Both the position numbers and the translations under genes were made by a program. Below are positions 2,876 to 31,864 of a stretch of DNA of 59,473 bases, piece by piece (positions within the stretch are counted from its first letter, which is position 1; each line of letters opens with the position of its first letter). The notes under the pieces are model-generated. The model was given only the letters and a program-made list of their open reading frames with translations. It was not told where the DNA came from and did no database searches. The stretch is taken from the IMG/VR virus record IMGVR_UViG_3300044840_000012, positions 1 through 59,473 of that record. One strand, given 5' to 3'. This DNA is from a virus (lineage: Duplodnaviria > Caudoviricetes).

Positions 2876-2899
2876 CTTGGATGCTCAGACGGAAGGCCC

Positions 2900-3142: not shown

Positions 3143-3219
3143 TGGAGCTTGTACCTCCGTGTCATGGGCCGGGTCGTTTGCGCGATGCCGGCCCGATTAG
3201 TGCCCCGATCATACCACTG

Positions 3220-3594: not shown

Positions 3595-4055
3595 GCCTCC
3601 AGCCAGCCGAAGTCACGGGCGGTCACGGTAAGCAGCCGCTCGAACTCCGGGCCGTAGCCGAACCGCTCGGCGTTCTGTTTGATCGAGCGGGCGAGGTCCC
3701 CGTCGGCGTGTCGCATCGTCGCGGCCTTCCAGTCGACCAGCATCTCGATCACGTCGAGTAGGTTCATCCCGGCGATGCCGTCCGCGAAGTGCTCCGGGTG
3801 GTGTCGATTCTCGCGGTAGTGATGCTTGAGCCCTTCGCCCATCCCCTCGAGGAACTGCTTGTACTCGGGGCTGCCGTAGGTCGAGTCGCGGAGCTTCGGC
3901 GTGTACTCGTTGAAGACGGCCAGCTCCGGCTCGCGAAGCTTCGAGCGATCGTGGTCGTCTGCTCGCCGGATGATGTCGCAGGCGACCCTGAGCAGAACGC
4001 CTCGGACGCTGGCGATGTGCTCGAACGTGTCGGGGCGACTGTCGTAAGCCATCAC
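3591..4055 (-). CDS. DUF5662-like HD-superfamily protein
   Basis: HDRSK...HHYRENRHHPEHF...DVIEMLVDWKAA. Confidence 0.8.
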   Translation of the reverse strand: MMAYDSRPDTFEHIASVRGVLLRVACDIIRRADDHDRSKLREPELAVFNEYTPKLRDSTYGSPEYKQFLEGMGEGLKHHYRENRHHPEHFADGIAGMNLLDVIEMLVDWKAATMRHADGDLARSIKQNAERFGYGPEFERLLTVTARDFGWLEA

Positions 4056-4384
4056 TTCACCTCCCGCGCGAGCTCGAGCGCTTCGGCGCTCCCACCGAAC
4101 CTAAGGGGGGCACGATCGTCCTCCTCGATCCGGCGAACCAGCGCACCCACCTGGGCGTCGATCTCCACCCGCCGAGCCTGAAGGTAATCCGCACGCTTCT
4201 TCTCCCGAAACGCCTCCGCCCGCCAGTACGACTTGCCGCGCGACTCGCCATCCTCGTTCTCGTAGTCCTCGTTGCGGGCAGCGAGCCCCCTCGCCTGAGC
4301 GGCCAGCGCCTCATGCTTCTCGGCCTCACGGATGTACTCGGCGGCGGCCTCATCGGACACGTAGGTTCCGGGGTGGTGGGACAT
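4052..4384 (-). CDS. Hypothetical helical protein
   Basis: GAGGAG RBS; coupled to downstream gene. Confidence 0.7.
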   Translation of the reverse strand: MSHHPGTYVSDEAAAEYIREAEKHEALAAQARGLAARNEDYENEDGESRGKSYWRAEAFREKKRADYLQARRVEIDAQVGALVRRIEEDDRAPLRFGGSAEALELAREVK

Positions 4385-4441
4385 GGGTTCTCCTCTCGGC
4401 TCAAGGCCGGGTTGGTGCTCTCCACCGGATGGCGGGAAGGG

Positions 4442-4600
4442 TTAGGCGTGCTCTCTCGTTGCGTCCTGCGCCTCGGTGACCACCGAACCCACCTCGATCC
4501 GAAGCTCACGCCGACCAAGACGCTCAACCTCAACGAATCGGCCGTCCACCTCGATTACGAGGCAACGCCCGGCCTTGCGGAAGGAGACGTTCCAGTCCAT
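4442..4600 (-). CDS. Small hypothetical protein (52 aa, MDWNVSFRKAG...)
   Basis: Manual translation; fills the gap after the RlpA-like gene. Confidence 0.5.
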   Translation of the reverse strand: MDWNVSFRKAGRCLVIEVDGRFVEVERLGRRELRIEVGSVVTEAQDATREHA

Positions 4601-4601
4601 G

Positions 4602-5000
4602 TCAGCGACTCACGCGAATCCGGGCGACTCCCGCGCTGATCGGGAAGCCAATCGCTCGAGCGGTAGCGATCGTCAAATCCCATTCACGCCCTGCGATGAA
4701 GGGCCCTCTGTCGATGACCGGCACCGTCAGGCACCGCCGAGCGCAAACCCGGACCCTCGTGCCGCACGGCAGCGTCTTGTGCGCCACCCCCAGCATCGTG
4801 CTGGTGAGCGTCGCCCCACCACACGCCACCGGGCCACCGGAGTCCGCGGGCCCGTAGAACGACGCCACCGCCCAGCGCATCGGGCGGCGAGCGTCGATCT
4901 TCGCTTGAACCCTCGCTCGACACGTCTGCGACGAGCACCAGTTCCTTGGGGCCTCATGCCCCGACACGAACACGAGGGCAGTGAGGAGGAGGGCCCGCAC
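4602..5000 (-). CDS. RlpA-like double-psi beta-barrel lytic transglycosylase with signal peptide
   Basis: ASFYGP...VAHKTLPCGTRVRV...VIDRGPF...REWDLT. Confidence 0.9.
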   Translation of the reverse strand: MRALLLTALVFVSGHEAPRNWCSSQTCRARVQAKIDARRPMRWAVASFYGPADSGGPVACGGATLTSTMLGVAHKTLPCGTRVRVCARRCLTVPVIDRGPFIAGREWDLTIATARAIGFPISAGVARIRVSR

Positions 5001-5378
5001 CTAGCCGCCGGTGGCGACGCCCGGGGGCGGCACGTTCGGATCGGCGGGCGGCTGCGGGCCCGGGGTGCCCGGGGTGGTGGTCGTGGGCGCCGGGGTTCCC
5101 GAAGCGGCCGTGGTGGCGTCGGAGAGCGCCTGGGCGGTGCTCGTGACGCTCGCGGTCAGCGCGTCGATCTGCGCCTGGCTGATCGTGCCGGCCGTCAGGC
5201 TGGACACCTGCGCGGCGAGCGCGGCGAGTTCGGCCGCGGCGGCCTGCTCGTCGGTTTGGAGCTGCGTGACGGCGGCGTTGAGGGCGGAGAGGTCGGCCAT
5301 GATGGTGATGCTCCTTTCGAGGATTCGATTGATCTTGCGTTCGATGCGTTCGAGGTGGTCGAGGTCGTCGTCGTCCAT
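5001..5378 (-). CDS. Coiled-coil protein of the lysis region
   Basis: Heptad-rich Ala/Leu helix with Pro/Thr tail. Confidence 0.7.
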   Translation of the reverse strand: MDDDDLDHLERIERKINRILERSITIMADLSALNAAVTQLQTDEQAAAAELAALAAQVSSLTAGTISQAQIDALTASVTSTAQALSDATTAASGTPAPTTTTPGTPGPQPPADPNVPPPGVATGG

Positions 5379-5869
5379 CAGATGTACCTGTGCACCGCCA
5401 GGATGTTCTGGCCCATCTGGTCGTAGCGGAGGAAGTTCGGGCCGTCCTCCGACCCGTGCGAGATCACCATTCCGCCGCCGACATGCATCGCGGTGTGGAA
5501 CCCGGGGAACCCGTTGCCGTAGAGCACGGCATCCCCGCGCTGCATGTTGCGAGTCCCGACGTTCTCGCCGTGCTCGAGCATCGTCCCGGTGTAGCCGGCC
5601 TGCCAGCTCGAGCCGTTCACGACGTCACCGACGCCGAAGTGATCGAGGCCATTCCACAGCCACCACGTCACCGACGAGGAGCAGTCGGAGTAGTGCGGGA
5701 ACTGGCCGCGCCACGCCTTCAGGTGACGGTCGATGCCCTCCCAGCGATTGCCCTGCTCACTGTAGTGTAAATCGTTGCCCCGGTTGTGGAGCATAAGGAC
5801 GGCCGCTTGAACCGCCATGTCTCGCGCGCGAATCCGATCGCGCGTTGAGAGTCCGGAGAGACGGGCCAT
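5378..5869 (-). CDS. Endolysin, NlpC/P60 peptidase
   Basis: DCSS...GYTGTM...GDAVLYG...HTAMHVGGGMVISHG (Cys-His-His). Confidence 0.88.
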   Translation of the reverse strand: MARLSGLSTRDRIRARDMAVQAAVLMLHNRGNDLHYSEQGNRWEGIDRHLKAWRGQFPHYSDCSSSVTWWLWNGLDHFGVGDVVNGSSWQAGYTGTMLEHGENVGTRNMQRGDAVLYGNGFPGFHTAMHVGGGMVISHGSEDGPNFLRYDQMGQNILAVHRYI

Positions 5870-5870
5870 G

Positions 5871-6311
5871 TCAGGCCACCTTTCTGTGAACGAGACCGTG
5901 GTGCCGCCGGCAGAGCCACGTCACGACCAGCGGTTGGGAGTAGTCGTGGTGATGAGCTTGTGTTTTTGGCTCATCGCAGAAGAGGCACGGTTCGCGCGTC
6001 AGGCGTCCACGTTCGGCGGCCTCTCGTGCCACCCTTCGCGCGTCCCAGCGCACCTTCTCTTTCTGGTACCGCCCGCGAGCCTGAGCGGCCAGCTTCTCCC
6101 GGTTCTTAGCGTTGCTCTTCCGTGCGCTCTCGCGTTGACGCTCCCGGAACTCCGGATCCTCGCGCCGCCGCCGCATCTCTTCGCGGTACGCCACGGGGTC
6201 GGCCTGCCGCTTGGCTCGCATCCAGCCGGTGTGGTAACACCGCTCCGAGCAGAACCGCCCGTGTCCGACCCCTGGCCCTTCGATGGTCTGCTCGCAGTTC
6301 TCGCAGACCAT
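5871..6311 (-). CDS. HNH-type endonuclease
   Basis: CLFC...AHHHDYSQPLVVTWLCRRHHGLVH; N-terminal Zn motif. Confidence 0.75.
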   Translation of the reverse strand: MVCENCEQTIEGPGVGHGRFCSERCYHTGWMRAKRQADPVAYREEMRRRREDPEFRERQRESARKSNAKNREKLAAQARGRYQKEKVRWDARRVAREAAERGRLTREPCLFCDEPKTQAHHHDYSQPLVVTWLCRRHHGLVHRKVA

Positions 6312-6895
6312 CAGACTGCCGGCGGGATCGTCGGGACGTTCAGGATGACCTTGCTCTGCGCGTCAGCGAGCTGCGCCTGAAGCGCCGCGATCTCCGCGTC
6401 CCTCGGGTCGGGGGCCGGCGCGGACGGCTGGCCCGCGTCACCAACCGGCGGCGGCACGTTCTCGTCCGCCGTGACGCCGGCGAGCATCGGGTCGAGCTCG
6501 TCCTTCTCGATCGCCCCACCCGGGAGCGCCGTCTCGAGGTCCTTCGCGACGGCCTCCATGGCATGAAGGATCGGCTGGAGCGCCGTCGGCACCTTCGCCT
6601 CCTCCGACTTCACCAGGGTCTCGAACTTCGTCAAGAGGCCCGGGTCGGCCTTCGCGACGGCCTTCGCGACCGCCTCGCCGTCGACCGCGATCTCGTGGAC
6701 GATGCCGGGCTTGGCGAGGTACGCGGCGATGGTTGAGGTCAGGCCGCCGGCGGAACCGGCGATGAGGGCAGCGATCGACGTCGTGTCGAACGTGCCGGTG
6801 ATCGCGAGGTTGACGAGGGCGACGACAACGCCGCCTGCGGTTGGAGCGACGCCCGCTGCGAGAGTCTTCGGGCTGACGCCTTGCGTGGTAGTCAT
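6311..6895 (-). CDS. Holin-like membrane protein with acidic cytoplasmic tail
   Basis: AAGGAGG RBS before ATG 6895; two N-terminal hydrophobic helices; upstream of endolysin. Confidence 0.65.
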   Translation of the reverse strand: MTTTQGVSPKTLAAGVAPTAGGVVVALVNLAITGTFDTTSIAALIAGSAGGLTSTIAAYLAKPGIVHEIAVDGEAVAKAVAKADPGLLTKFETLVKSEEAKVPTALQPILHAMEAVAKDLETALPGGAIEKDELDPMLAGVTADENVPPPVGDAGQPSAPAPDPRDAEIAALQAQLADAQSKVILNVPTIPPAV

Positions 6896-6983
6896 GCGGT
6901 CCTCCTTGTGGTCTCCCTGTTGGACAGGTGTGCGCCGGCCAGCCCGCGACAGGGAGGGCACGGGCGGCCGACGCAGATGAAGG

Positions 6984-7277
6984 TCAGTGAGTGGCGGGAA
7001 GCGGACCGGAGCAATCGAGCGGCATCGTGCGCGCCGCGTCCGCCCGGAACCGCCTGGCTGCGAGAAGATCCACCTCCGCCTGAGCGGGGTTCCAGCGCGG
7101 GCCACGCGCCAGCTCGAGACGGGCGCTCTGCTCCCTCGCAATCGCCGCGTCGATCGGGTACTGATGGATTGCGGGGACCAGCACGTTATGACGCGTACAG
7201 GACGCGTGGTCGTTGGCGTAGCCCGTCCCGAAGATGACAAGGATCAGCACGACGACCATCCAGCCCGCGGCCTTCAT
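6984..7277 (-). CDS. Membrane protein of the lysis cassette
   Basis: N-terminal TM; two Cys bracketing a helical ectodomain. Confidence 0.65.
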   Translation of the reverse strand: MKAAGWMVVVLILVIFGTGYANDHASCTRHNVLVPAIHQYPIDAAIAREQSARLELARGPRWNPAQAEVDLLAARRFRADAARTMPLDCSGPLPATH

Positions 7278-7975
7278 GCGCACACCGACGGCGTGAAGCG
7301 CTTGAGTTCGATCTGGAGCTGCGCCTTCTCGGCTTGAAGCTGCGCGGGAAACAGCGCGTAGTAGTCCGCGCCCGGGGTGCCGGGCTTGCCGACCGTCGCC
7401 AGACTCGACGCCACCGAGTCGTAAATCTGGCGGTAGACGCGGGCGACCCGCACGCAGAGACGATGCGTACTCTGCGCCGTCTGGGCCTTGAGTTGCGCCT
7501 GGAGGCTCGCGACGCTGGCGACGAGGGCACCGATGCGCGCCTGCTGAGCGGCGATGGACAGGATGAGCCGTCGGTTGTCCACGCTCAGGTGCTTCTCCGC
7601 CGCGAGCGCTCGCGCGTTGTCCCCCGCCCGGGCCAAGCTGATTCGGCCAAGCGCGAGCGCCTGCCGGTGGTTGATCGTCGCCGTCTTCCTGATCTGCGCG
7701 AGGTTCGCCGCGTTCTGCGCCTTGCGCTCGATCAGCGAAGCGGCGTCCCGGGCGCGCTGAGCCGCCTCGGAGCGAGCGAAGTCAGCGACCGCGGTGTCCG
7801 CGCTCATCGCGGCGTGAGTGGCCTGCTTCGTCGCCACGCTCGAGCGGTGAAGCGCGATGTACAGGCCGACGCCCATGAACGTCAGGGCGAGCGCGATCCA
7901 CGCCGTCGGGCGGTGACCGGCCATGCACTGGCGCATCGCCGGAAGGGGGCAGATTCGCTTCGGAAGATGCTTCAC
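7274..7975 (-). CDS. Membrane-anchored long coiled-coil protein
   Basis: TM (WIALALTFMGVGLYIAL) followed by an Ala-rich coiled coil. Confidence 0.7.
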   Translation of the reverse strand: MKHLPKRICPLPAMRQCMAGHRPTAWIALALTFMGVGLYIALHRSSVATKQATHAAMSADTAVADFARSEAAQRARDAASLIERKAQNAANLAQIRKTATINHRQALALGRISLARAGDNARALAAEKHLSVDNRRLILSIAAQQARIGALVASVASLQAQLKAQTAQSTHRLCVRVARVYRQIYDSVASSLATVGKPGTPGADYYALFPAQLQAEKAQLQIELKRFTPSVCA

Positions 7976-20135: not shown

Positions 20136-21809
20136 CTAGGCGGGGATCGTGCTGGTGATCGGAATGGACGTAAGGGAGTAAGTCCCCGACTGCATGAACG
20201 GACTAATCCGGACCAGCACGTTGGCGTTCAGCGCCCCCGCCTGCTCGGTGGTCGTCGTGTTGATCGGCGGCGTGAGAATTGCCTTGCCGGCATCGGTCGC
20301 ATCCGCTCCGTACAGCGCGTCGGCCGACCAGTGGCGGGCAATCATCGCCATCAGTTCTCCCGTGACCTTGCCGATCAGGAGATTCCGGCCGTCGATCGAC
20401 TGGAACATGTGGGAGTTGAGGATGCCCGTCCCCTCGTTGACCAGCGCCATCCGCTCGTAGCCGGCCGAGGCCTGCCAGAAGATCGGGTCCGCCGACTGGA
20501 GCACGCCGCTCGAGAACCCGCAGAGGCACAGCGCCGGAAGACCAAGCCCGGTCTTCGGGGTCTGGAATGTGTTGAACCCGACGGCGTTGAGGCTGATCGT
20601 GTCCGCGAGGCTGTAGGTGTTCGTGAACCCCGTGACGTAGCGCAGCGGGTAGTTGACGCCCGACGGGGCCTGGTTGTCGTTCCCCGTCGCCGACACGCGC
20701 GCCCGCAGGGCAGCCACGACCGCGGAAGAGCCGACGGTACGAGACGTTGCCGTCGCGAACGGGTTCGGCACGATGCACTGGGCGCCTGCGACGACGAGAT
20801 ACCCGGCGTAGGTCGAGTTGTTGATCGCCGTCATCGCGGCGATGATCGTCGCGGCCGTCGGGGTGTCCGGCAGCTCCACGGCGCCCATCCGATTGACGCC
20901 GGTCGATACGCAGTGCGCGCCGATGCCGGCCCAGATCGTCGGGCTCGTCTGGCCGGGGATCGCGACCGTGCCCGGCCCGAGGGCCGGCGGGAAGTTCGCG
21001 AGCGCGCCCACCCGGATCGTGTCGGTGATGTCGGTGATGTTGCCGCCCCCCGCCAGCGCCGTCGCCGCGGTCGTCGTCGGGACGTTGGTCGTGAAGCCCG
21101 AGCCCGCGCTTTGCGAGAACGCGACGAACGCCGACGTCGTGTCGGCGAAGAGTTGGGCGGTCGTGTTGTAGGGGCCGTGGGTCTCGAGAATGTTGCCGCT
21201 CGAGTCCTGCACCGTGACGGTGTACTTGGTCGGGGTGATCGTCACGCCCGTCGCGGTCGCCGTCGCGGCCTGGGAGAGCGTCAGGGTGCTCGACCCGGGT
21301 GTGACCGAAGCGACATAGGTCCCCGCCGGGATGCCCGTCCCGGAGACCGGGGTGCCGACGCCGATGTTCGCGAAGCTCGAGACGTTCGTGACCGTGATGC
21401 TCGAGGCGGTGTTGCCGGTGAGCGTCGCGGCGGTCGACAGGGCGACCGCAACCTTGAAGGCATTCCCGTCCACGCCGGGGCTCAGGGCGGAGACCACGAC
21501 GGTCGGGTGCGGCGTGACATCGCTCAGCGTCAGTGTCGCCGCGATGGACGTGGCGTCGTTGACGCGGGTGACGTAGCAGACGCTTCCGCCCTCGTGGAAG
21601 AACACGTCGACGGCGTCGTACAGCGTAGCGCTCGTCGGTGACCTCGCCCCGAATGCGATCGTGTAGTCGTTGATGCTGGCGCAGCGCACGTAGGTCGTGC
21701 CGGGCCCCTGGTCGGCCTCGCCGGCGAAGAACGCCCGGCCGGTCGCCCCGGGTCCACCGGTTCCCGCCTGGAGGATCTCGTTGCTCGTGAAGGTGATTCC
21801 AAGGCCCAT
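20136..21809 (-). CDS. Contractile tail sheath protein
   Basis: AFFAGEADQGP...SINDYTIAFG...YDAVDVFFHEGGSVCYVTRV; C-terminal VLVRISPF. Confidence 0.92.
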   Translation of the reverse strand: MGLGITFTSNEILQAGTGGPGATGRAFFAGEADQGPGTTYVRCASINDYTIAFGARSPTSATLYDAVDVFFHEGGSVCYVTRVNDATSIAATLTLSDVTPHPTVVVSALSPGVDGNAFKVAVALSTAATLTGNTASSITVTNVSSFANIGVGTPVSGTGIPAGTYVASVTPGSSTLTLSQAATATATGVTITPTKYTVTVQDSSGNILETHGPYNTTAQLFADTTSAFVAFSQSAGSGFTTNVPTTTAATALAGGGNITDITDTIRVGALANFPPALGPGTVAIPGQTSPTIWAGIGAHCVSTGVNRMGAVELPDTPTAATIIAAMTAINNSTYAGYLVVAGAQCIVPNPFATATSRTVGSSAVVAALRARVSATGNDNQAPSGVNYPLRYVTGFTNTYSLADTISLNAVGFNTFQTPKTGLGLPALCLCGFSSGVLQSADPIFWQASAGYERMALVNEGTGILNSHMFQSIDGRNLLIGKVTGELMAMIARHWSADALYGADATDAGKAILTPPINTTTTEQAGALNANVLVRISPFMQSGTYSLTSIPITSTIPA

Positions 21810-21819
21810 AGCGCTGCTC

Positions 21820-22485
21820 CTAGCTCGTGAGTGGTTCGCCGGTGACCGTGAGGTCAGTGGTCGCGACGGTCGGGAACTGCCCGAACGGCGCATCAGGGGT
21901 GCCGCCGTATTCCGGGCTTTCGGGCGGCGTGTCGGTCCCCGGCCCGGCGCTGGGAACAACGATCGGGGAAACTGTCGATGCGAAGGTCGTGACGCACAGC
22001 GCGATGCGGCGCTGATCGGCGGTAGGCAGACTCACCCTTGGCGCACCGGTCATCACCGTCTCGATCGCCACGCCCTGAAGGCCGCCGTGCTGGCAGACCG
22101 CGAGCATGACCGCGGCGCCGTAGAACGAGGCGATCATGCGCGCGCGGTCTTCGTCGCCGTCGATGACGACCACCCCGACCTGCACGTCGTATGTCTGGAA
22201 GATCCCCTCGGCGAACCGCTCCGGGGGGCCTTGCGGGACGACGACGACGATGACCGCCGGGGTGTTGTTCTGGTTGTAGGAGAGGAAGTCAACCCCGCCG
22301 TAGGTGCAGTCGATGTTCGGCTGGCGGGTGACCGTCGACGCGTCCAGGCCGTTCTGGCGCTCAACCTCGGCAAGGCAGACCTCAAGCCATCCGGCAGCCC
22401 CCGCGCCCGTGGCGGCCCCGAGGAGGCCGATGTAGGCCCGCTCGACGTTCCAGGTGCTGATGCACGGCCCGAAGATGCTGGTCAT
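21820..22485 (-). CDS. Neck / tail-terminator protein
   Basis: Between head-tail connector and sheath; PAVIVVVVP motif. Confidence 0.65.
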   Translation of the reverse strand: MTSIFGPCISTWNVERAYIGLLGAATGAGAAGWLEVCLAEVERQNGLDASTVTRQPNIDCTYGGVDFLSYNQNNTPAVIVVVVPQGPPERFAEGIFQTYDVQVGVVVIDGDEDRARMIASFYGAAVMLAVCQHGGLQGVAIETVMTGAPRVSLPTADQRRIALCVTTFASTVSPIVVPSAGPGTDTPPESPEYGGTPDAPFGQFPTVATTDLTVTGEPLTS

Positions 22486-23108
22486 GCGATCGACGGGCCC
22501 CGTCGGGTTGGCCCGAGCATCCGCCGAGCGCTCGGCGGAAGGGCGGACATGAGCGTCACGCCCACGTCCAGCGCGTCGGCGGGCGCGAAGCGACCCGCGC
22601 CAACGGCCTGCGTCGTCTCGTAGTTGACTCTCACCGCCTCCAGGCACGCCAACCGGACGTTTGCCGGCACCGACGCCTGCCCGGCCTGGTACACGATGTG
22701 GACGCTGTCCGGTCCCGCCGGGAACGCGACCGTCCCGCCGCCCGCGGATCGGCGGGTGATGATGCCGAGGCGCACGTTGACCTCGAAGCTGTAGATCGTG
22801 CCGAGCGACGCGTCGGCCACGTCGACCAGGGAGTACGCCGTGGACCCGACGTACTCCGTCGCCGAGAGCACATTCAGCACGGGAGAAGTCCCGTATCCCA
22901 CCGACGGGCGATGCGACAGGCTGATGATGTGGTTGCCACCCGCGTAGCTCTCGTCGTAAATCTGCGGGACGATCGGTCCGGTCAGCGACTCGATCTCGGG
23001 TCGCGCCGCCTCGAGCATCATCTCGAGCTCGGCGTCCCGGTCCGATGTCCTGATCGACAGGAACTGTTTGACCTCCGCGAGCGTGACGAGCGCCGTTGGG
23101 TACGCCAT
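22482..23108 (-). CDS. Head-tail connector (gp6/gp15-like)
   Basis: LVTLAEVKQFL...DAELEMMLEAA...VYQAG..VPANVRLACLE...LPPSARRML. Confidence 0.88.
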   Translation of the reverse strand: MAYPTALVTLAEVKQFLSIRTSDRDAELEMMLEAARPEIESLTGPIVPQIYDESYAGGNHIISLSHRPSVGYGTSPVLNVLSATEYVGSTAYSLVDVADASLGTIYSFEVNVRLGIITRRSAGGGTVAFPAGPDSVHIVYQAGQASVPANVRLACLEAVRVNYETTQAVGAGRFAPADALDVGVTLMSALPPSARRMLGPTRRGPSIA

Positions 23109-23293
23109 CAGTCGGAGCCCTCCCATAGAAGCGGCTCCGCTTCCGGCTGTGGGGAACGGACGCTGAACCCGAACGGAACGCGATGAGCGTTCTCCGGGTC
23201 ATCGCGCTTGTCGGCCGGCTCGACCACGCTGATCGTGGGCGAGCCGCCGGCCGTCAGGGTCCAACGCCACTCGTCGCCGTGCCAGTAGCCCAT
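23108..23293 (-). CDS. Small hypothetical protein
   Basis: TGATG coupling on both sides. Confidence 0.55.
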   Translation of the reverse strand: MGYWHGDEWRWTLTAGGSPTISVVEPADKRDDPENAHRVPFGFSVRSPQPEAEPLLWEGSD

Positions 23294-23673
23294 CAGGGAA
23301 GCGTCTCCCCGAGAAGCGACGACCGGACTGACTGGAAGGCGTCGATGTAGCAGCGCGCGGTGTGGCGAGCCGGGTCGTCCTCGTTGAGAGCGTCCCGCCT
23401 TGCGCGCCACAGGGTGACCGCCGCGTCGAGGTACTCGCGCACCTCCCACTGCTGCAGTGGCGTAGGCGGATCCTCATTCGCCTGCGAGAGCAAGATCGGC
23501 TGGCCGTTCGTCGGGCACGGCGCCCAATGCGTCAGCGGCCGAGACCCATCGTTGAGATCGAGCGGATACGCGAGGGGCTCAAAGGTCAGATCAACGTGAC
23601 CTTCGCCCCGACAGCGCGCACAGCCCGTCAAGCCCTTGATGTGGAGCGGCTCTCCTATGATCGCGTCGGCCAT
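23293..23673 (-). CDS. Hypothetical Cys-containing protein
   Basis: TGATG coupling; CARC...WAPCPTNGQPI. Confidence 0.65.
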   Translation of the reverse strand: MADAIIGEPLHIKGLTGCARCRGEGHVDLTFEPLAYPLDLNDGSRPLTHWAPCPTNGQPILLSQANEDPPTPLQQWEVREYLDAAVTLWRARRDALNEDDPARHTARCYIDAFQSVRSSLLGETLP

Positions 23674-23957
23674 CAGGCCGCCCCGTCTTCGCAGTCGACG
23701 CACCGGCCGACGATCTGGCCGTGCTCGCACCGCGGCAACTTCGGACGGCCACCCTTACGGGTCTCCATCGGCGGCGGATCGGCCGTCTCGCGATCGTCAC
23801 GCTCGGGCCGCTCCATCGCGGGCGGAACGGCCTGCTCGAGCAGGTGGGGGTTACCCATCCGCTCGAGCTCGACCGTCATGCACCGCGCAATCCCGGCATC
23901 ACCGCGAGCGGTAGCCCGGATCTTCGCGGCCAGGAACATCTCAGCCCTTGGGTGCAT
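23673..23957 (-). CDS. Hypothetical protein of the head region
   Basis: GGAGG RBS; C-terminal CEH...CVDC. Confidence 0.6.
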   Translation of the reverse strand: MHPRAEMFLAAKIRATARGDAGIARCMTVELERMGNPHLLEQAVPPAMERPERDDRETADPPPMETRKGGRPKLPRCEHGQIVGRCVDCEDGAA

Positions 23958-24474
23958 CGCTGCCCTCCGGGAGGAGACCGCCCGGCTTGACGTCGGGGAC
24001 GATGCTCCCGTCGTTGTCAGCACCCGCGAGAGCCGGATCCTGCTGCTTGGTCTCGAGGTGATCCTTCGCGAGCACCGGATCGCCCGGGTTGAGCGCCGGC
24101 TCCGGCGTGTCCGTGTCGCCCGTGCGACGCGCCGGGTCCTGCTCCGGGACGACGCCCGGACCAGCCGCGACGCCCTCGGGGCGCACGCCCTCCGTAGAGC
24201 CCGGCGGCACCGGCTCCCCGCTCAGCGGATGCACGTTCGGCTGACCGCCCGCCTCGACCGCCTGCGTCTGAGACTGCACCTGCTCGAACGCCGGGTCGTA
24301 GGCCTCCATCGCCGGCGGCTTGTCACCCGCGACGTTGACGCCCCGCACCGCGTTGGACGCGGTTATTACCGCGTTCTCGATACGCGCGGCGTCAGCCACG
24401 GCAACGCCTTCCATCTCTCGAGCGTCCTTCACCAGCTGCTCCAGGCGGTCCTGGATGTCGTTCTTCAGCGCCAT
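23941..24474 (-). CDS. Acidic, Pro-rich protein downstream of capsid gene
   Basis: AGGAG RBS; low-complexity sequence. Confidence 0.65.
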   Translation of the reverse strand: MALKNDIQDRLEQLVKDAREMEGVAVADAARIENAVITASNAVRGVNVAGDKPPAMEAYDPAFEQVQSQTQAVEAGGQPNVHPLSGEPVPPGSTEGVRPEGVAAGPGVVPEQDPARRTGDTDTPEPALNPGDPVLAKDHLETKQQDPALAGADNDGSIVPDVKPGGLLPEGSDAPKG

Positions 24475-24509
24475 CGTTCACTCCTGACGTTTCGCATTTA
24501 CCGAAGAGG

Positions 24510-24545
24510 AACTGGGTCCCAGTGGATAACCACCGGGACCCAGCT
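24510..24545 (-). terminator. Stem-loop after the major capsid gene
   Basis: AGCUGGGUCCCGGUGG-UUAU-CCACUGGGACCCAGUU 16-bp stem just after the stop codon. Confidence 0.75.
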
Positions 24546-24550
24546 GGGCC

Positions 24551-26179
24551 TTAGTACAGGAGACCCGCGACCGCGCCGACCGGTGCCGCGAACCCGGACC
24601 CCTCGGCGAGGGAGATCGACTGCCCGTAGCGGACGAGCATGGCGATGTAGTTGTACGCCTGGAAGCGAACTTCCAGGGTCCCCGAGAGGACCTCCTCGAG
24701 GACACGGGTCCGCATGTCGCCCTCGAACAGCCAGACGTCGTCCCACTTCGCGGCGATGCCGACGTCCTGGCCGGTGCCGCCGCCCGTCGTGTCCGTCAGC
24801 GGCACGTTGCCGTCGATGTAGACGTTCGGGCCGAACGGCACGTTGCCGGCGTAGCCCTGCGCCGGGAGCTCGGCGACCTCCGTGCTCGACATGTTCAGGC
24901 CCATCCCGCGGGGCGACTCGACCAGCGGGCGCCCCGTCGAGTCGAGACCCGTCGCGTACCAGAACCACCTGCGGGGATGCAGGAGGAAGTGGAAGTCGTT
25001 GAGGTCGAAGCGGCTGTAGGACGCCTGCGACGCCATCGCTCCCATCACCTGAACGAAGTGCTGCGGGTTCGGGGTTGTGGCGGTGTAGGTGATGATGTTC
25101 GTGCCCGCCCAGTTCGTCGCCGGGTACAGGCCGAGCACCTGGCCACCGTTGAGCGTCGCGGTGTTCGTGCCGTTGCCCCAGATCACCTGACGGTCGACGA
25201 GGCGGTTGTAGTCGGCCATGAGGTCTTCCATGACGACCTGGTCGATGATCTGCCCGGGCGACTGGTCGAGCAGCTGAATCGCGACGTCCTGCTGACCGGC
25301 GACGGTCTTGACGTTCGCCTGCACCGACGTATCGGTCAGGTCGGTCGACTGGACGGCCGCGTTGTCCGCCGTTTGGACCGCCGTGGCCGTCCCGGAGGCG
25401 AGCTTCGGGATGTTGATGCTGTCGGTGCCGGGCGGGAGGTCGAGGTTGCGAGCCAGACCCGCGGCGACGCGACCGGCGCGCAGGAGCGGGATGAACTCGT
25501 CGATCAGCCACAGCGGCGGGACGAAGTAGCCGCCCTGCCCCTGGGTCCGGTTCGGGTTGACCCGACGCTCGAACGGCGTCGCGGCCAGACCGCGACGACC
25601 GGGGCCATCGACGAACGAGCCGGTGAAGTCCTTCTCGGCCTCATCGACCTGCTTCCGCGCCCGACGCTCGCGCGCCTCCAGCCGCTTGGGCATCTCGACG
25701 TCGATCTCCTTGCCGTGGCGCTGGAGCCGCTCGCGCGCCTCGTCCGGTCCGGTGGAGCGCATCGACGCCGCGACGTTCGGCAGCTGCGAGCACGCGAGGT
25801 CCTTGAAGTACGAGAACTCCTCCGCGTTGTCGGAGCGGTACGTCATCGGCTCCCGCGTAACCGAGATGCTCGGCCGCGACGCCCGCGACGCCTCGGTCCG
25901 GCGAAGCTCCTGAAGCTCCTGCTGGTCGATACGACGCGTCAGGTCCTTGATCTCCTGCTCGCGGGCCGCGAAGTCCGCGGCGAACGTCGCCTCGGCCTCG
26001 GTGAACGCGGTGCGCTCCTCGGCGGTCGGGCGCTTGCTCTCGTCCTTGTCGGCCGCGCGCTGCTCCATCTGCGTGCGCTCGGTCTCGCGGCCCTCGATCT
26101 GGGTGCCGATCTCGTCGAGCAGGGTCTTGCGCTTGTCGAGGAGCTGCTCGAGCAGGGTCCTCTCTTCGGTGGCGTCCAT
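24551..26179 (-). CDS. Major capsid protein, HK97 fold, with N-terminal coiled-coil scaffold (542 aa)
   Basis: AAAGGAG RBS; coiled-coil N-term; GGYFVPP...INIPK...DVAIQLLDQS...LLHPRRW...DSTGRPL. Confidence 0.93.
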   Translation of the reverse strand: MDATEERTLLEQLLDKRKTLLDEIGTQIEGRETERTQMEQRAADKDESKRPTAEERTAFTEAEATFAADFAAREQEIKDLTRRIDQQELQELRRTEASRASRPSISVTREPMTYRSDNAEEFSYFKDLACSQLPNVAASMRSTGPDEARERLQRHGKEIDVEMPKRLEARERRARKQVDEAEKDFTGSFVDGPGRRGLAATPFERRVNPNRTQGQGGYFVPPLWLIDEFIPLLRAGRVAAGLARNLDLPPGTDSINIPKLASGTATAVQTADNAAVQSTDLTDTSVQANVKTVAGQQDVAIQLLDQSPGQIIDQVVMEDLMADYNRLVDRQVIWGNGTNTATLNGGQVLGLYPATNWAGTNIITYTATTPNPQHFVQVMGAMASQASYSRFDLNDFHFLLHPRRWFWYATGLDSTGRPLVESPRGMGLNMSSTEVAELPAQGYAGNVPFGPNVYIDGNVPLTDTTGGGTGQDVGIAAKWDDVWLFEGDMRTRVLEEVLSGTLEVRFQAYNYIAMLVRYGQSISLAEGSGFAAPVGAVAGLLY

Positions 26180-26338
26180 GACGGACTCCTTTTCGTTTCG
26201 GGAGAGACGCCACGCGAAAGCGCGGCGGGTTGTCGGGTCTCCCGGGCGGTGCTCGACCACAAACGACGAGCGGCAGACGATCGGCCTGCCAGCGCGTCGC
26301 TGGTGAAGTCCAACGCGGGGGGTGCTACAAGACGGGTG

Positions 26339-27481
26339 CTACCAGCCGGTCGGGATGATCGCCCCGGTCCCGGTGCAGACGCCGATCCCGGCGGGATAGC
26401 GACCGGGGAGGAACGCGGCGTAGTTGAGGAACTCGAGGCGGGCCTGAAGGGTCCCGCTGACGCCCGTGTCGACGTTGACCTTCACTCGGGGGGTCCCCTC
26501 GAGCAGGATCATGTCGGACGGCTTGCACGCGATCGCCTCGTCCTGGTTGGTGCCAGCACCGAGGTTCACCGCGATGGCGTCATCGGAGTAGGCGGGGACG
26601 CTCGCGACCGAGCCGTGAGGCCTTGTGGCGCTCTGCGCGTAACCCGGAACCGGGGTGCCCGGCGGGATCAGGGGCCGCCCGCTGCTGTCCGGCTGAGACG
26701 CCAGCCACGCCCACCGTGCCGTCCGGGTCAGGAACGCCTCCGGGGGCGCCTTCCTGGCATCCCCGACCTGAGCGACGAGCTGGCACCACGCCGTGTACAT
26801 GGCCGGGCCGGCGGGTGTTCCGGACGTGTAGGGCACCGACGCGATCCCCGGGACGTTGACGACGCCGAGAAGCTGACCGCCCGCACCCGTGCCGTTGAGC
26901 ATCTGCGTTTCGAGCTGCTCGTCGTAGGCCTGGGAGAGGTCCTTGAAGATCGCCCAGTCGAGATGAGCACCGGGGGGCGACTGCTCCAGGACCTGCATCG
27001 ACACGAGGCCGAGCCCGGCGATCGTCACCACGGGCGACGACACGGCAGCGTCAACGAGGTCAGTGTCCGAGGGCGTCCCGAGCGGGGATACCGGGGCGAC
27101 CGACCCGCCCGTCGTCAGGCGGGGGAGGTTGACCGACGAGACGCCACGCGGCAGCGGGAACGTCGGCACGAGGTCCGCGAGCACCCGGGAAGCGCGCGGC
27201 ACTCCGGCGTACTTGTCGATCAGCCAGAGGGGCGGTGAGAGGAACCCGCCCTGGCCGTCGGTCGTGTTCGGGTTGACGCGAAACTCAAGGCCCTGCTGGG
27301 CGGCCATCATGCGGGCGGCAGCGTCACGCCGCGGGATCTCGACGCCCATCTCCCGGCCGTGGCGCTCGAGCCGTTCCCGGGCCCGCTCATCTCCCCGAGC
27401 GTCGAGCGCGCGGTCACGGAAGTACGACGTCGAAGCAGCCGGGTCGTACGTGAGCGGCTCGCTGGTGATCTCGACGGTCAT
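26339..27481 (-). CDS. Second HK97-fold capsid protein lacking the coiled-coil scaffold (380 aa)
   Basis: Collinear with the downstream capsid protein: GGFLSPPLWLID...VNLPR...VSMQVLEQS...LNGTG...DSSGRPL. Confidence 0.9.
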   Translation of the reverse strand: MTVEITSEPLTYDPAASTSYFRDRALDARGDERARERLERHGREMGVEIPRRDAAARMMAAQQGLEFRVNPNTTDGQGGFLSPPLWLIDKYAGVPRASRVLADLVPTFPLPRGVSSVNLPRLTTGGSVAPVSPLGTPSDTDLVDAAVSSPVVTIAGLGLVSMQVLEQSPPGAHLDWAIFKDLSQAYDEQLETQMLNGTGAGGQLLGVVNVPGIASVPYTSGTPAGPAMYTAWCQLVAQVGDARKAPPEAFLTRTARWAWLASQPDSSGRPLIPPGTPVPGYAQSATRPHGSVASVPAYSDDAIAVNLGAGTNQDEAIACKPSDMILLEGTPRVKVNVDTGVSGTLQARLEFLNYAAFLPGRYPAGIGVCTGTGAIIPTGW

Positions 27482-28767
27482 CGTCCTCTCCCTTCGAGCA
27501 GCGCGAGGCGTTGGCGGGCCCGGCGAGTGAAGTCCGGGAGAGGCTCGACCGAGCGGACCGCCTCGACTGGCTCGTCGTCGTCCGGGTTCGGAACGCCCAT
27601 CAGGTCCGCGAGGAGCGGCTGGGCGGCATCGACCGCGTCGTCGGCTGTCGCGACATAGTCGAGGACGCGCTTGAGCACGTCCATGTTGCTCGCCGAGATC
27701 GCCTTGCCGGCGCGGACCTCCATCAGCGCCCCGACGAGATCGGCGCGCTGAACGCTGACGCTGGTCGCCTCGTTGGCGCCCATCGACACGAGGCTGACAT
27801 CTCCCCGATGTAGCGACACGCTCTTGATCGAGCGGTGCGAGTGATCATCCGTCCAGTCCTGGTCGGTGACGAGGAAGGCGAAGGAGCACTGGTCGATCAG
27901 GCCGCGCTCGACCTTCCGTGCAAGGATCCGGCTCTCCGGGTCCTCCGGGTCGAGGTCCGCCGTCCAGAGCAGGCCCTTGGAGTTCTCCTCGAGCGTGAGC
28001 GACCCGGCCTTCGTGCGAGCGAGCGGCATCCCCTCATGGCCGTAGAGGAGAACCACGTCGGGGTCCTCAGCGAGCGTCCGGCGGAAAGCGCCCCGCCTGA
28101 TGACCTCCACGAACGGGCCCACGGAATACTCACGCTCGGTCACCGACCCGTAGCCGCTCATGCGCAGCGTGCCGTCCTCGAGCGCGCGGCACTCAAGGCC
28201 GGCGACCTCAAACTCGCGATGCTCGATCGTGCCCTTGAGGGCGTCGGCCTTGCGCTTGCGGAACTCCAGCGTGCCGCTGGCGTTGCGCTCCGACGGCTCG
28301 GTCGGAATGTAGGTCGTCGCCGGGCGCACCTTGATCTGGTCGCCGACAGTGATCGGGCCGGCGGGATCGACGGAGTACGGCGCGGAGAACAGGTCGCCGC
28401 CCATGCAGAAGATCACGTCGGTCGCGGTGAAGTCCTGAACCCAGATGTAGAAGTAGGAGCCCTCGTCCTCGAACTTCTCGTCGAGAGCCGCCTGGAGGCC
28501 CGCGTAGAGGTCGGACCACGTCTCGCGCTGCTCGTCGGTCGCCCACGCCGCCGCCGTGCTCTTGAGCGAGCCATCCGCGTTCCAGTTGTCGGGCAGCCAG
28601 CCGGCGCGCTTCAGCGACCCTGCGCGCGAAGCGATCTGGGCGCGAACGCCGTCCAGGGTCTTACCGCGCGTGGCGGAGGCGATGGCCGCCCGAAGCTGGC
28701 TCACCGTCAGATCCCCGACCTGCGAGTCCGGCGTGAACTTCTCGAGCGCCAGTTCAGATGTGGGCAT
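27478..28767 (-). CDS. HK97-family prohead protease with N-terminal extension
   Basis: GYGSV...FVEVIRRGAF...LLYGH...GLIDQCSFAF...DVSLVSMGANEAT. Confidence 0.93.
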   Translation of the reverse strand: MPTSELALEKFTPDSQVGDLTVSQLRAAIASATRGKTLDGVRAQIASRAGSLKRAGWLPDNWNADGSLKSTAAAWATDEQRETWSDLYAGLQAALDEKFEDEGSYFYIWVQDFTATDVIFCMGGDLFSAPYSVDPAGPITVGDQIKVRPATTYIPTEPSERNASGTLEFRKRKADALKGTIEHREFEVAGLECRALEDGTLRMSGYGSVTEREYSVGPFVEVIRRGAFRRTLAEDPDVVLLYGHEGMPLARTKAGSLTLEENSKGLLWTADLDPEDPESRILARKVERGLIDQCSFAFLVTDQDWTDDHSHRSIKSVSLHRGDVSLVSMGANEATSVSVQRADLVGALMEVRAGKAISASNMDVLKRVLDYVATADDAVDAAQPLLADLMGVPNPDDDEPVEAVRSVEPLPDFTRRARQRLALLEGRGR

Positions 28768-28803
28768 GGTCGCTCCGTCCGATCGTGGTCATGGGGTTGA
28801 GTC

Positions 28804-30063
28804 TTAGGGCCGGGCGCCCGAGGGCGCCGGGTCTTGAGGGTTGGCGTCGTTGGCCGCGGCCTGCACTTCCTCGAGCCCCGCCTGGAGGAGCTGCGAGTTG
28901 ATCGGCGTGAAAAACTCCTTGCCGTGCCCGTCCGGGACTGGTGGCATGTCTTCCTCGCCCCGGATGTCATCGGCGCACAGCCAACCGCCGAGGATCCCGA
29001 GCGAGTACGCCTGGTAACGCTGGAGCTTGTCGCCGCGGAGCCGCTCGTTGTAGTTGAAGCGAACGTACTGGCCGGGCGGGTGAAGGTCGGTCAGGGACTC
29101 CTCGAGCCGGCGGGTGTAGCCGCCAAGGGTGTTGCGGACGAACCCGAGCTCCTGCTGCTCGATCCCCCTGCCCCACGACGTCGAGCGATCGACGATGCCG
29201 ATCATGTGCGGCGGGACCCGGAAGATCCGGCCGCTGATCTCGCTCCCCGAATACTCGCGAGACTGGAGAAACTGCGCGTCGTCGGGAGTGATCGTGATCG
29301 CGTTGAACTTCGCGCCGCCCGTCAAGACCGCGGGAAGGTTCGCCTGGACGATGCCCTGATGCATCGACTTCCACGCCACGGCCAAGGCGAGCGTCTCGTC
29401 CGGATCGAGATCCCCCTCCACCTCGATCACGCCGCCCGGGAGGGCCGAGTTGGCGAAGAACGATCCGCCGTACATCTCCGCGGCCCGAGCGAGGCCGAGG
29501 GTGTTGCGGAGATACTCGATCGGGTTGAGCCCGACGAGCGAGTCGGCGACCGACATGTAGCGGACGTGGAACACGTCGCTCGTCGGGACCGCACGACCGT
29601 AGAAGCGGTACTCGATCGACCCGCTGGGGAGCCTGCGGACCTTCGCCTGGTCAGGGTGGACCGGCTTGATCTGCGTCGGAAAAAGGTTCTCGTCGCGGCT
29701 GATGATGTGGCCGTAGAAGTTGCCTCGAATCGCGAGGCTCAGCGTGTACTGCACCAGCCAATCCATGCGGCTGATCTCGCTGTATGGCTGCTGAAGAAGG
29801 GGTGAGGGCGGCAGAGCCCGCCGGCTCGCTGGGTCCGTGGAGCTCTTCAGCTCCAGCGGCAGCGTGGCGATGGCGTCGGAGAGGACCCCGACCGATCCGT
29901 AGACTGCGGCGACCTGAAGCGCCGTCTTCTCGTTGATGATCGTGCCCGCGGCCGCGCCCCCGAGAGACCCGTTGGTGGGTGGCGTCGAGTCCCCCCACTG
30001 CATGGAGGTCACGCTACGTCGCTCAGCTAGGGAGGCGGCGGCACGGCGAATGAGCGCCGGCAC
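28804..30063 (-). CDS. Portal protein (HK97 family)
   Basis: ALQVAAVYGSVGVLSDAIATLP...RGNFY...DAQFLQSR...IFRVPPHMIG. Confidence 0.95.
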   Translation of the reverse strand: MPALIRRAAASLAERRSVTSMQWGDSTPPTNGSLGGAAAGTIINEKTALQVAAVYGSVGVLSDAIATLPLELKSSTDPASRRALPPSPLLQQPYSEISRMDWLVQYTLSLAIRGNFYGHIISRDENLFPTQIKPVHPDQAKVRRLPSGSIEYRFYGRAVPTSDVFHVRYMSVADSLVGLNPIEYLRNTLGLARAAEMYGGSFFANSALPGGVIEVEGDLDPDETLALAVAWKSMHQGIVQANLPAVLTGGAKFNAITITPDDAQFLQSREYSGSEISGRIFRVPPHMIGIVDRSTSWGRGIEQQELGFVRNTLGGYTRRLEESLTDLHPPGQYVRFNYNERLRGDKLQRYQAYSLGILGGWLCADDIRGEEDMPPVPDGHGKEFFTPINSQLLQAGLEEVQAAANDANPQDPAPSGARP

Positions 30064-30286: not shown

Positions 30287-31864
30287 TCAAGATGCGTTCG
30301 CGAGCGCGTCCGCCAAACTGATCGCGCGAGCCTTCGGCGGCTTCATCGACGACACCGCCCAGACGGCGAGCGTCGGAGCAACCAGCGGGGAGATGTCGAC
30401 ATCCGAGTCCCTGCGAGACCAAGCCGTCGCCTCGCCGATCTTCCGGGTCGCCGCGCCGGCGACGGCCGAGTTCAACTCCGGTGTTCCCAAGTGCCGTAGG
30501 ACCCCGTTCGTGGCCGCGTCGACGAAAACTCCGTACGCCTTCGTGAACTCGGATGAGCTCGTCGTCACCAGTCTTGGCGAGTGCGAATCCAGCGGCACCG
30601 GCTCGATCCCGAGATCCTTGAACTCGGCAAGCAACGATGCGGCCGGCCCGCGCTCATCCAGGATGATCGGTGCCTTGTACTTCTTCCCGAGCTCGACCGC
30701 TCGAGCGACCACCCAGCCGGTGCCGCGCTCATGCTCAACGGTCTCGACGTGAAGCTTCCCGTCCGTTCGACGGCTTGCGACACTGATCGCCGAGTAGCGC
30801 CGGTCAGGGGTTGTCTCAACCGCGAATGCGCGGAGGTTGCCGGCCTTCGACCGGGGGTCGAGGCACGCTTCCCACACCTCGGCTGAAATTTCGCGGCTCG
30901 CTGATTCGTCGGTGTTCGGCCAGTCGCCGATCCCCAGCCGCTCGACGGTAAACTCCCGCCGGCCCAGCGCCCCCCCGTACTCATTGCCGATGTGCTCCTG
31001 AGAGATCCGGCGCCCCATGCCTGGGTTGGCCTGCGCCCACATCTCCGGATCGGCGAGAAGTTCGGGCGTGACCTGGTCGATCTCGGGCAGATCCGGGTCA
31101 TATCGGAGCCCGTGCGCCGTCAGCCACCCTCCGACGTCGGCCGACCATTCGACGTACCCGATGCGCGGCACCCTGCGGAGCGCCCGGTCACGGAGGCGCG
31201 CGAAGACAACGCCATGCTCGTGGATCTCCTGGTCGACGCTGCTCCCGGCATACACGAGCTGCGGGTTGCCGACCATCGACCTCGCCGCCATCGTCGGCAC
31301 GAGCGTCCCCATCATCTGGAGAGCGATGATCATCGCCTCATCGAGGACGATCAGGTCACCGGTCAACCCCCGGCCGCCCCCAGATGTTCGAGTGACGAAC
31401 AGAATCCGCTGGCCGCCCCTGAGTTCGATCGCCTCAGAGCCCTTGCCGCGCGAGACCCGGAGGATCCGCTGCTCGAACTCCGGCACCCCCTCGATGAGCT
31501 GGAGCATCCGAAGATGATGCTCGGAAGACGTGCGCTGCTCATGCGCCGAGTGGATAATCAGCTTCTCGTCGAGCAGGAACGCGCCGACGAGCTCGCGGGC
31601 CTCGAGGATTTTGCCCTTGCCGTTCTGGCGGGGCTCTGCCACCCCGAACTCGAACGATGCCCATCGGCCGTCTGCTCGCTCGCCGAGCATGTCGGTCAGG
31701 ACGAGCTGCTGTCCCGGGTCCAGCTCCAGGCCGGCGAGCTCGCAGAGCTCGATGGCTTCCGCGACAGCCGACGAGACGTACTCAGGAACGCATCGGATCC
31801 GCGGTTCCTGCGAGCCGAGCAGCATCGGCTCGACGCGACCTGCGGCGGTTGGCGAGGTCGTCAA
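30287..31864 (-). CDS. terL: Terminase large subunit (start may be ATG 31825)
   Basis: Walker A PRQNGKG; HSAHE; GRGLTGDLIVLDEA; C-terminal DISPLVAPTLA. Confidence 0.95.
   Translation of the reverse strand: MTTSPTAAGRVEPMLLGSQEPRIRCVPEYVSSAVAEAIELCELAGLELDPGQQLVLTDMLGERADGRWASFEFGVAEPRQNGKGKILEARELVGAFLLDEKLIIHSAHEQRTSSEHHLRMLQLIEGVPEFEQRILRVSRGKGSEAIELRGGQRILFVTRTSGGGRGLTGDLIVLDEAMIIALQMMGTLVPTMAARSMVGNPQLVYAGSSVDQEIHEHGVVFARLRDRALRRVPRIGYVEWSADVGGWLTAHGLRYDPDLPEIDQVTPELLADPEMWAQANPGMGRRISQEHIGNEYGGALGRREFTVERLGIGDWPNTDESASREISAEVWEACLDPRSKAGNLRAFAVETTPDRRYSAISVASRRTDGKLHVETVEHERGTGWVVARAVELGKKYKAPIILDERGPAASLLAEFKDLGIEPVPLDSHSPRLVTTSSSEFTKAYGVFVDAATNGVLRHLGTPELNSAVAGAATRKIGEATAWSRRDSDVDISPLVAPTLAVWAVSSMKPPKARAISLADALANAS

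Follow-up and report, generated by a model that had tools for sequence, protein, structure and literature searches.

The phage genome examined here (IMG/VR virus record IMGVR_UViG_3300044840_000012, Caudoviricetes; the whole stretch, positions 1 to 59,473, is called the window) carries two capsid genes in tandem, one for a short protein, MCP1 (380 amino acids [aa]; 26339-27481, minus strand, ATG start), and one for a long protein, MCP2 (542 aa; 24551-26179, minus strand), where MCP stands for major capsid protein. The two are paralogs, are predicted to share the HK97 fold, and recur side by side behind a maturation protease in a group of divergent uncultivated phages, where both genes are under purifying selection; the shell of the window phage and of these relatives is most likely built from two specialised proteins rather than one. 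The division of labour that we favour, with confidence evenly balanced between its being right and wrong, assigns the hexons to MCP2, the copy that bears the scaffold, and the vertices (pentons) to MCP1 as a low-copy protein. We rate this as a known, rare dual-MCP arrangement, of which the protease-MCP1-MCP2 form is new.

Evidence for paralogy is direct. MCP1 and MCP2 align at 34% identity over 438 columns (BLASTP, E 4e-58), an alignment that covers all of MCP1 and contains every motif pair quoted by an earlier sequence-only reading of this stretch, which had proposed two intact capsid-like paralogs. Both proteins clear the curated cut-off of Pfam family PF05065 (Phage_capsid; 24.2 bits), with 39.7 bits for MCP1 and 39.9 bits for MCP2, and both have phrog_2263 as their best PHROG match. 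The open reading frame (ORF) of MCP2 counted from its first GTG spans 24551-26260 (569 aa); the start of the 542-aa form, ATG 26179, has AAGGAG 7 nt upstream and agrees with the N-termini of four orthologs.

Modelled separately (AlphaFold2 with a 44-row family alignment), MCP1 and MCP2 both come out as HK97 folds, with a predicted local distance difference test score (pLDDT) of 79.8 and a predicted template-modelling score (pTM) of 0.70 for MCP1 and a pLDDT of 75.7 for MCP2. The top Foldseek matches of both models in the PDB are capsids only (D3, phiXacJX1, HK97, actinobacteriophages, and a gene transfer agent); for these predicted structures the phage-capsid matches run from E 4e-17 to 1e-12, with template-modelling (TM) scores by target of 0.66-0.80. 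MCP1 finds the D3 capsid at E 4e-17 and HK97 1ohg at E 2.6e-14, MCP2 finds HK97 Head II at E 9e-14, and the family profile matches HK97 gp5 by sequence as well (E 1.5e-12). The fold of the short copy, which the earlier reading had singled out as a check, is thus upheld at the level of prediction. The predicted E-loops and spine helices are similar in the two proteins, and the MCP1 core is only ~24 aa shorter than that of MCP2, the difference lying in A-domain loops. In a weak alignment with HK97 (single-sequence E 0.2), the cross-link lysine K169 stands opposite V276 of MCP2, and neither protein has a lysine in the aligned E-loop stretch; by this comparison, the Lys-Asn isopeptide chainmail specific to HK97 would be missing. 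A complex prediction that paired the MCP2 core (207-542) with the MCP1 core (69-380), using 44-row alignments and run without controls, scored 0.01 and is no evidence either way.

The two proteins differ most at their N-termini. Residues 1-103 of MCP2 (25871-26179, minus strand) are predicted to form a distal, delta-domain-like helical hairpin (helices 9-43 and 53-101, pLDDT about 95), followed in the model by a floppy linker (102-107), a helical part (124-186), a disordered stretch (187-213) and the core (214-542). This hairpin of ~100 aa is missing from MCP1, whose residue 2 stands opposite MCP2 residue 104 where the BLASTP alignment begins, and it is absent from all 11 sequences of the MCP1 clade; extensions before the EPLTY motif in MCP1 orthologs measure 5-45 aa, and one ortholog, from locus L099, has a globular domain instead. 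The description of the short copy as scaffold-less consequently holds for the distal hairpin and fails for the rest: MCP1 residues 1-68 (27278-27481, minus strand) are a retained proximal pro-region, homologous to MCP2 residues 104-206 (25562-25870, minus strand; shared by BLASTP and in the predicted model), and are modelled as helices 20-28 and 32-62 with a low-confidence or disordered 64-74 ahead of the core. Four of the 11 columns invariant across 44 family sequences fall in this piece (Y12, D23, R37, and R68).

The last of these, R68, ends the MCP1 pro-region, just as invariant R206, in a disordered stretch, ends that of MCP2. The maturation cut in HK97 lies at K103/S104, and gp5 residues 98-103 (AKTFNK) stand opposite MCP2 200-205 in the weak alignment already mentioned, which would place a cut at about R205-R206/V207 in MCP2 and R68/V69 in MCP1. 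Cleavage after the invariant arginine is thus a candidate in both proteins; either both are cut there, or MCP2 is cut only after its hairpin and MCP1 is "born mature." Five proteins 43-48% identical to MCP1 (P0073, P0056, P0074, P0044, and P0079) have a charged helical N-terminal extension of ~60-110 aa and, judged by sequence, may branch near the base of the MCP1 clade as single-copy relatives that bear a delta domain; a search of viral contigs for the P0074 type found nothing.

Synteny of the pair, another check proposed at the outset, was borne out. Among 81 IMG/VR loci (L004-L084), two MCP regions occur only in L004, L006/L007, and L084, in the order protease-MCP1-MCP2; scans with an alignment of MCP1 orthologs and with database relatives add L087/L088, L089, L090, L091, L099/L104, and L108. 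With L006, L007, and L092, L087 and L088, and L099 and L104 each counted as one locus, MCP1 is followed by MCP2 in 10 distinct loci, window included, of the 11 with readable DNA downstream of an MCP1-type gene (L093 ends just past the MCP2 leader box and L094 inside MCP1). By tblastn, both proteins match the same 61 mycobacteriophage records (Omega-like and Bipper-like, 31-36% identity), and each of these cultured relatives has one matching place (61/61). A metagenome protein collection yields 155 relatives at E 1e-40 or better, unnamed or annotated "HK97 family phage major capsid protein"; about 90 of them, known as protein sequences only, are at least 41% identical (MCP1-type) and mostly 368-410 aa long. 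Some contigs are far beyond phage genome size (304011 bp for L088; 171-638 kb for those of P0044, P0073, and P0056), which suggests that some carriers of MCP1-type genes are prophages. Names of metagenome-assembled genomes among the more distant matches include Actinomycetota, Acidimicrobiales, Mycobacteriales, and Solirubrobacteraceae.

In a 38-row capsid tree, the MCP1 rows and the MCP2 rows each form one clade, with support of 100 each in the Shimodaira-Hasegawa-like approximate likelihood ratio test (SH-aLRT). Its rows were all 11 of MCP1 type, 6 of MCP2 (those of sufficient length), and 21 from single-copy loci, namely L096, L097, and 19 of the roughly 48 in a first tree; duplicates and truncated ORFs were omitted, as were L041/L045, whose extracted sequence contained a stop. 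The first tree, of 57 rows, agrees, with supports of 99 for MCP1 and 100 for MCP2. As the clades are separate, the split predates these phages, among which protein identity is only 41-60%. At depth, the 38-row tree does not resolve how the two paralog clades and the single-copy groups are related, and a sister relation of MCP1 and MCP2 is not rejected by an approximately unbiased (AU) test (log-likelihood difference 4.5, p 0.13), so that the sequences are compatible with an origin by tandem duplication. A 42-row portal tree places the eight usable two-MCP phages in one starred clade (support 99) together with a single-MCP pair, L009/L012; a sister group by portal tree (L008-L012, L111, and L113) has a single MCP, which implies that the second copy is dispensable in some lineages.

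Pairwise ratios of nonsynonymous to synonymous substitution (dN/dS; Nei-Gojobori, NG86) are below 1 throughout: 0.29 for the closest MCP1 pair (L090-L093, 79% identical, dS 0.55), 0.28 for L084-L091, 0.28-0.76 across all 55 MCP1 pairs, and 0.32-0.86 across 28 MCP2 pairs, values that are rough and probably too high, since dS is near saturation and GC content at third codon positions (GC3) is about 0.9. On these counts, both genes are under purifying selection, neutrality being excluded for close pairs; neutral evolution of the short copy was one of the outcomes that the earlier reading had named as contrary to it. Compared genome pair by genome pair, conservation is higher for MCP2 than for MCP1 in 12 of 15 cases, the same in 1, and lower in 2.

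The long copy has expression signals of its own. All that the earlier reading had listed for it is present: a (predicted) helical N-terminus, a long leader, a strong ribosome-binding site, and a downstream stem-loop. In the window, the genes are separated by 159 nt (26180-26338, minus strand), and every MCP2 is preceded by such a non-coding leader, 124-350 nt long (in relatives, L004 4602-4751, L084 5868-5991, L087 6162-6288, L089 1269-1430, L090 4187-4349, and L091 4072-4205). An alignment of seven leaders has 28 invariant columns, conservation well beyond what is expected from the proteins of these phages, whose identity is only about 50%. Adjoining the ribosome-binding site of MCP2 on its upstream side is a box with invariant CTCCCGAA, CTCCCGAA(A/G)(G/C)(G/A)A (26193-26204, minus strand, from the leader alignment); the CTCCCGAA box pattern has 7 matches in 113 loci, every one just upstream of MCP2, and in the window it has 2 matches against 0.16 expected. 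The leader could form a GGGAG...CTCCC stem with a loop of variable length, both arms of which are invariant, placing the stem beyond covariation testing; RNAalifold returns another, weakly supported fold (24 pairs, 10 with compensatory changes, covariation term +0.51). As there is no net covariation bonus, we claim conservation of the leader and no defined structure. A search of 23500-29000 against Rfam gave no match, and the leader may act in processing, in translation, or as a promoter. In L090, a tRNA-Ser gene (anticodon gct; 4012-4097) is inserted in the spacer between MCP1 and MCP2.

Five nucleotides past the MCP2 stop lies a GC-rich hairpin of 16 bp (24510-24545, minus strand), with a folding energy of -40.7 kcal/mol (z -5.98; 0/200 shuffles as stable). 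It looks like a terminator or mRNA stabiliser; a simple terminator scan did not call it on the minus strand, and a comparable hairpin follows MCP2 in L004 and is found in none of L006, L084, and L087.

MCP1, in turn, is tied to the gene before it. The prohead maturation protease (429 aa; 27478-28767, minus strand; PF04586 E 4e-29, phrog_80 E 1.7e-39) has an S78 domain at residues 191-342, a long N-terminal region, and a C-terminal tail of ~85 aa, and its stop overlaps the MCP1 start as ATGA, as the earlier reading had said. The same 4-nt overlap with an upstream stop is found in the window, L004, L005, L084, L087, L099, and L108, and in L093 the MCP1 start abuts the upstream stop; the overlapping gene is the protease in 6 of the 7 loci and, in L005, a 162-aa ORF of unknown function. 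Taken with the signals of MCP2, this organisation points to different doses of the two capsid proteins. A protein domain also appears to have moved between the protease and MCP1. A small domain at protease residues ~100-179 (28231-28470, minus strand) is homologous to the N-terminal ~110 aa of the MCP1 of L099, itself a two-MCP locus (30% over 87 aa, E 8e-10 by BLASTP; L099 copy at 5371-5730), and three database proteins, P0022, P0025, and P0034, look the same by eye. On sequence evidence, the domain has been shuffled between adjacent genes whose translation is coupled. The domain belongs to no known family: protease residues 100-179 match no Pfam family, and residues 1-185 gave only sub-threshold leads in a protein atlas (feature score at most 0.79, TM at most 0.47).

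These observations can be fitted into a single assembly scheme. MCP2 would be the major shell (hexon) protein, with the N-terminal delta-type scaffold usual in its family; its own leader and strong ribosome-binding site would allow large amounts to be made, and it would nucleate the procapsid and set its size. We read MCP2 in this way for two reasons: it carries the sole scaffold-like element, given that the window has no separate scaffolding gene between portal and MCP2, and its expression signals are independent and conserved. MCP1 would be a low-copy subunit, produced in step with the protease through the overlapping stop and start, unable without the hairpin to scaffold a shell alone, and would occupy, as pentons, the eleven fivefold vertices not taken by the portal (55 copies). 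Its reading as a minor subunit follows from loss of the hairpin and coupling to a low-copy protease with the full shell fold conserved; its penton role we infer from gene organisation and from analogy with T4 and the mycobacteriophage Jabs. The S78 protease would then trim the pro-regions of both. Relative abundance, vertex location, cleavage sites, and assembly order are thus all putative parts of the scheme.

Several points weigh against this scheme. In both models the HK97 fold is complete, the E-loops and spine helices are alike, and no clear penton signature such as the bent spine helix of Jabs MCPp is seen; the position and amount of MCP1 in the virion are reached by reasoning from analogy, and the alignment with HK97 that suggests the cleavage sites is weak. 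The dN/dS values are as rough as stated. MCP1 has a reasonable ribosome-binding site of its own (GGGAGAGGA), and in only about 6 of 10 loci does MCP2 have the higher GC3, an inconsistent difference that leaves the argument from expression weak. The single-MCP L009 and L012 share the starred portal clade with two-MCP phages, so one protein suffices in close kin; they reflect either loss of MCP1 or a slightly younger duplication. Finally, an 8.8-kb contig, L005, has an MCP1-type gene and no MCP2 on the contig. Its order (2107-7698) is HNH endonuclease, 162-aa ORF, MCP1-type gene, and 254-aa protease, leading directly to a tape-measure-like gene, and it hints that an MCP1-type protein is able to be the sole shell protein, though the contig could be misassembled or could represent a rearranged phage or a satellite-like element. 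The 162-aa ORF was considered as a scaffold-like candidate and set aside: it resembles neither the MCP2 hairpin nor the protease (E at least 1.1) and has no PHROG or Pfam match. Taken with the L008-L012 group, L005 suggests that a paralog of either type can suffice by itself.

In a different view of the pair, both are shell proteins with no hexon/penton split: they might form hetero-hexamers, MCP1 might occupy a special subset of capsomers such as those around the portal, or their ratio might tune size or geometry. Two conserved proteins of similar size, each with a complete predicted fold and conserved interface-forming elements, are what this view would lead one to expect; the conserved leader between the genes could set the MCP1:MCP2 ratio, and an MCP1-type protein perhaps acts alone in L005. 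We nevertheless consider it unlikely, if deserving of real weight, since coupling to a low-copy enzyme suits a minor component better than a 1:1 partner, and since both dual-MCP precedents found, T4 (PMC13185644) and Jabs (10.64898/2026.07.24.740622), use a strict hexon/penton split. As for the further proposals of the sequence-only reading, that the short copy changes capsid size or docks an appendage module, nothing emerged in support of either.

A second view takes the coupling more literally. MCP1 would chiefly serve the protease as partner or vehicle: having split off from a protease-capsid fusion, it would bring the enzyme into the procapsid or position it there, and would contribute little to the mature shell. 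The shared PHROG is suggestive here: phrog_2263 (551 positions) covers the protease at 42-179 and MCP1 at 222-545, so the family includes protease-capsid fusions, and a search for longer relatives found one distant fused protein (719 aa, PF04586 + PF05065). The conserved stop/start coupling and the protease N-terminal domain on MCP1 in L099 and in P0022, P0025, and P0034 point the same way. Against this stand the singularity of the fused form, at 31% identity, and retention by MCP1 of a whole shell-forming fold under purifying selection. In the window, moreover, a TGA stop closes the protease and MCP1 has an ATG of its own in a different frame, and the two are separate ORFs also in L004, L084, L087, L099, and L108. 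Programmed frameshifting at the junction was set aside on two grounds: no slippery heptamer is seen there by eye (no formal frameshift search was made), and the open frame ahead of MCP1 is not of constant length (121 codons in the window versus about 32-33 in L006 and L084), which counts against a frameshift fusion. We judge this second view distinctly improbable. A broader conjecture builds on the vertex reading instead: an uncultivated, probably actinobacterial lineage would have evolved a two-protein HK97 capsid independently of T4 and Jabs, in which vertex protein, protease, and mobile ~80-aa domain make up a coupled assembly unit, the protease is delivered to or acts from the fivefold vertices via MCP1, and the RNA leader sets the hexon:penton ratio. 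Taken whole, it is quite unlikely; if true, it would amount to a new organisation of capsid maturation, with a protease anchored at the vertex rather than scaffold-bound.

It is barely credible that MCP1 is a duplicate now redundant or in decay, or a foreign capsid gene of recent capture without a role: single-MCP relatives in the same portal clade and MCP1 branches somewhat longer than those of MCP2 would fit, but the ORF is intact in 11/11 MCP1-clade loci, the closest pairs have dN/dS of 0.28-0.29, position and coupling persist across phages only 41-60% identical, and about 90 metagenome proteins are of the same type.

The surrounding genes are those of a complete-looking tailed phage (CheckV completeness 100% for the record), with GC content of 65-70% over the full length, nearly all genes on the minus strand, and no tRNA genes found by a tRNA scan. 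The head module reads, on the minus strand, TerL, portal, S78 protease, MCP1, MCP2, and adaptor: large terminase at 30287-31864 (phrog_9, E 3.6e-59), portal at 28804-30063 (PF04860, E 1.3e-70), and head-tail adaptor at 22482-23126 (PHROG match), so that the capsid pair lies between protease and neck gene, as first read. Further on are a tube protein and a tape-measure protein (both by PHROG) and a Baseplate_J-like protein. A 607-aa ORF (20136-21959, minus strand) sits in the tail-sheath position just upstream of the tube-like gene and has no PHROG or Pfam match; the tail is probably contractile. Directly after MCP2, five two-MCP relatives have a gene of ~205 aa (L087 7933-8547, L084 7651-8268, L099 8834-9460, L004 6466-7098, and L006 8470-9150), a spot occupied in the window by a Pro/Gly/Asp-rich ORF of 177 aa (23941-24474, minus strand; no Pfam or PHROG match). 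The ~205-aa gene has no match in the single-MCP loci examined, its L087 copy is without a family match, and neither it nor a linked gene of ~115 aa was found in the window (tblastn E > 4).

HK97-fold phages nearly always solve the hexamer/pentamer problem with one conformation-switching protein, and T4 was long the textbook exception. Here, a sequence-related capsid pair is conserved in at least 10 divergent phage genomes; its origin lies within an ordinary HK97/Omega-like family, represented in culture by phages with a single copy. One-copy ancestors, two-copy phages, and possible reversions (L008-L012 and L005) make up a natural series, from which one could learn what residues decide whether an HK97 fold takes a fivefold or a sixfold position, and how much of the delta domain is required at each. 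For annotation, the lesson is simpler: "major capsid protein" twice in succession is not necessarily an error.

Comparison with known systems begins with single-copy relatives. Omega (gp15, 477 aa) and Cracklewink (gp13, 459 aa) have a single delta-bearing MCP in the order portal-protease-MCP, as in the window, and MCP2 is built like the MCPs of HK97, Omega, and Cracklewink, with a predicted N-terminal scaffold and a core; the extra protease-coupled short copy is absent from all three. Protease-capsid fusions of the phrog_2263 kind are one ORF, whereas the window has two ORFs split by a stop codon. The literature searched offered two dual-MCP tailed phages, T4 and Jabs, and no paper describing this protease-MCP1-MCP2 pair; the phrase "major capsid pentamer protein" was found in no paper.

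In T4, gp23 forms hexons and gp24 pentons, according to a review (PMC13185644) and the Jabs preprint. As in the window, the two are paralogous HK97-fold proteins. The T4 vertex protein likewise has the shorter propeptide (10 aa in gp24, 65 aa in gp23). T4 has a prolate T=13 head (T, triangulation number), a separate scaffolding core, and a genome of ~170 kb; in contrast, the window is a 59-kb genome that lacks a separate scaffold gene and whose MCPs belong to another subfamily (PF05065, HK97-like), and T4 proteins are absent among the sequence and fold matches listed for MCP1 and MCP2.

Jabs, a mycobacteriophage, is closer in kind. As described in its 2026 bioRxiv cryo-electron microscopy preprint (10.64898/2026.07.24.740622), it is a siphophage with a T=9 capsid and MCPs resembling those of Che8; its hexons consist of MCPh (ORF72, 594 aa), which is N-terminally processed and lacks density for residues 1-266, and its pentons of MCPp (ORF73, 257 aa), seen almost whole, a strategy that its authors call unprecedented among icosahedral phages. 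On that description, Jabs and the window alike have two adjacent HK97-fold capsid genes in a head module of actinobacteriophage type, and a long copy with a large N-terminal region, removed in Jabs, beside a short copy without one. They differ in the identity between copies (18% in Jabs, 34% in the window), in the short copy (no pro-region and a reduced axial domain in MCPp as reported, a 68-aa pro-region and near-full core in MCP1), in gene order (long then short in Jabs; short first and protease-coupled in the window), and in kin, which are Omega-like and Bipper-like for the window family and Che8-like for Jabs. An origin independent of both T4 gp24 and Jabs MCPp is likely, homology to Jabs being compared by description only. 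What the window shares with T4 and Jabs is a set of traits (paired HK97-fold paralogs in a head module, both retained under selection, the short one without the hairpin), and on the strength of genes and predicted structures the arrangement would place it beside them as a similar, and probably separately evolved, way of building a shell from two proteins.

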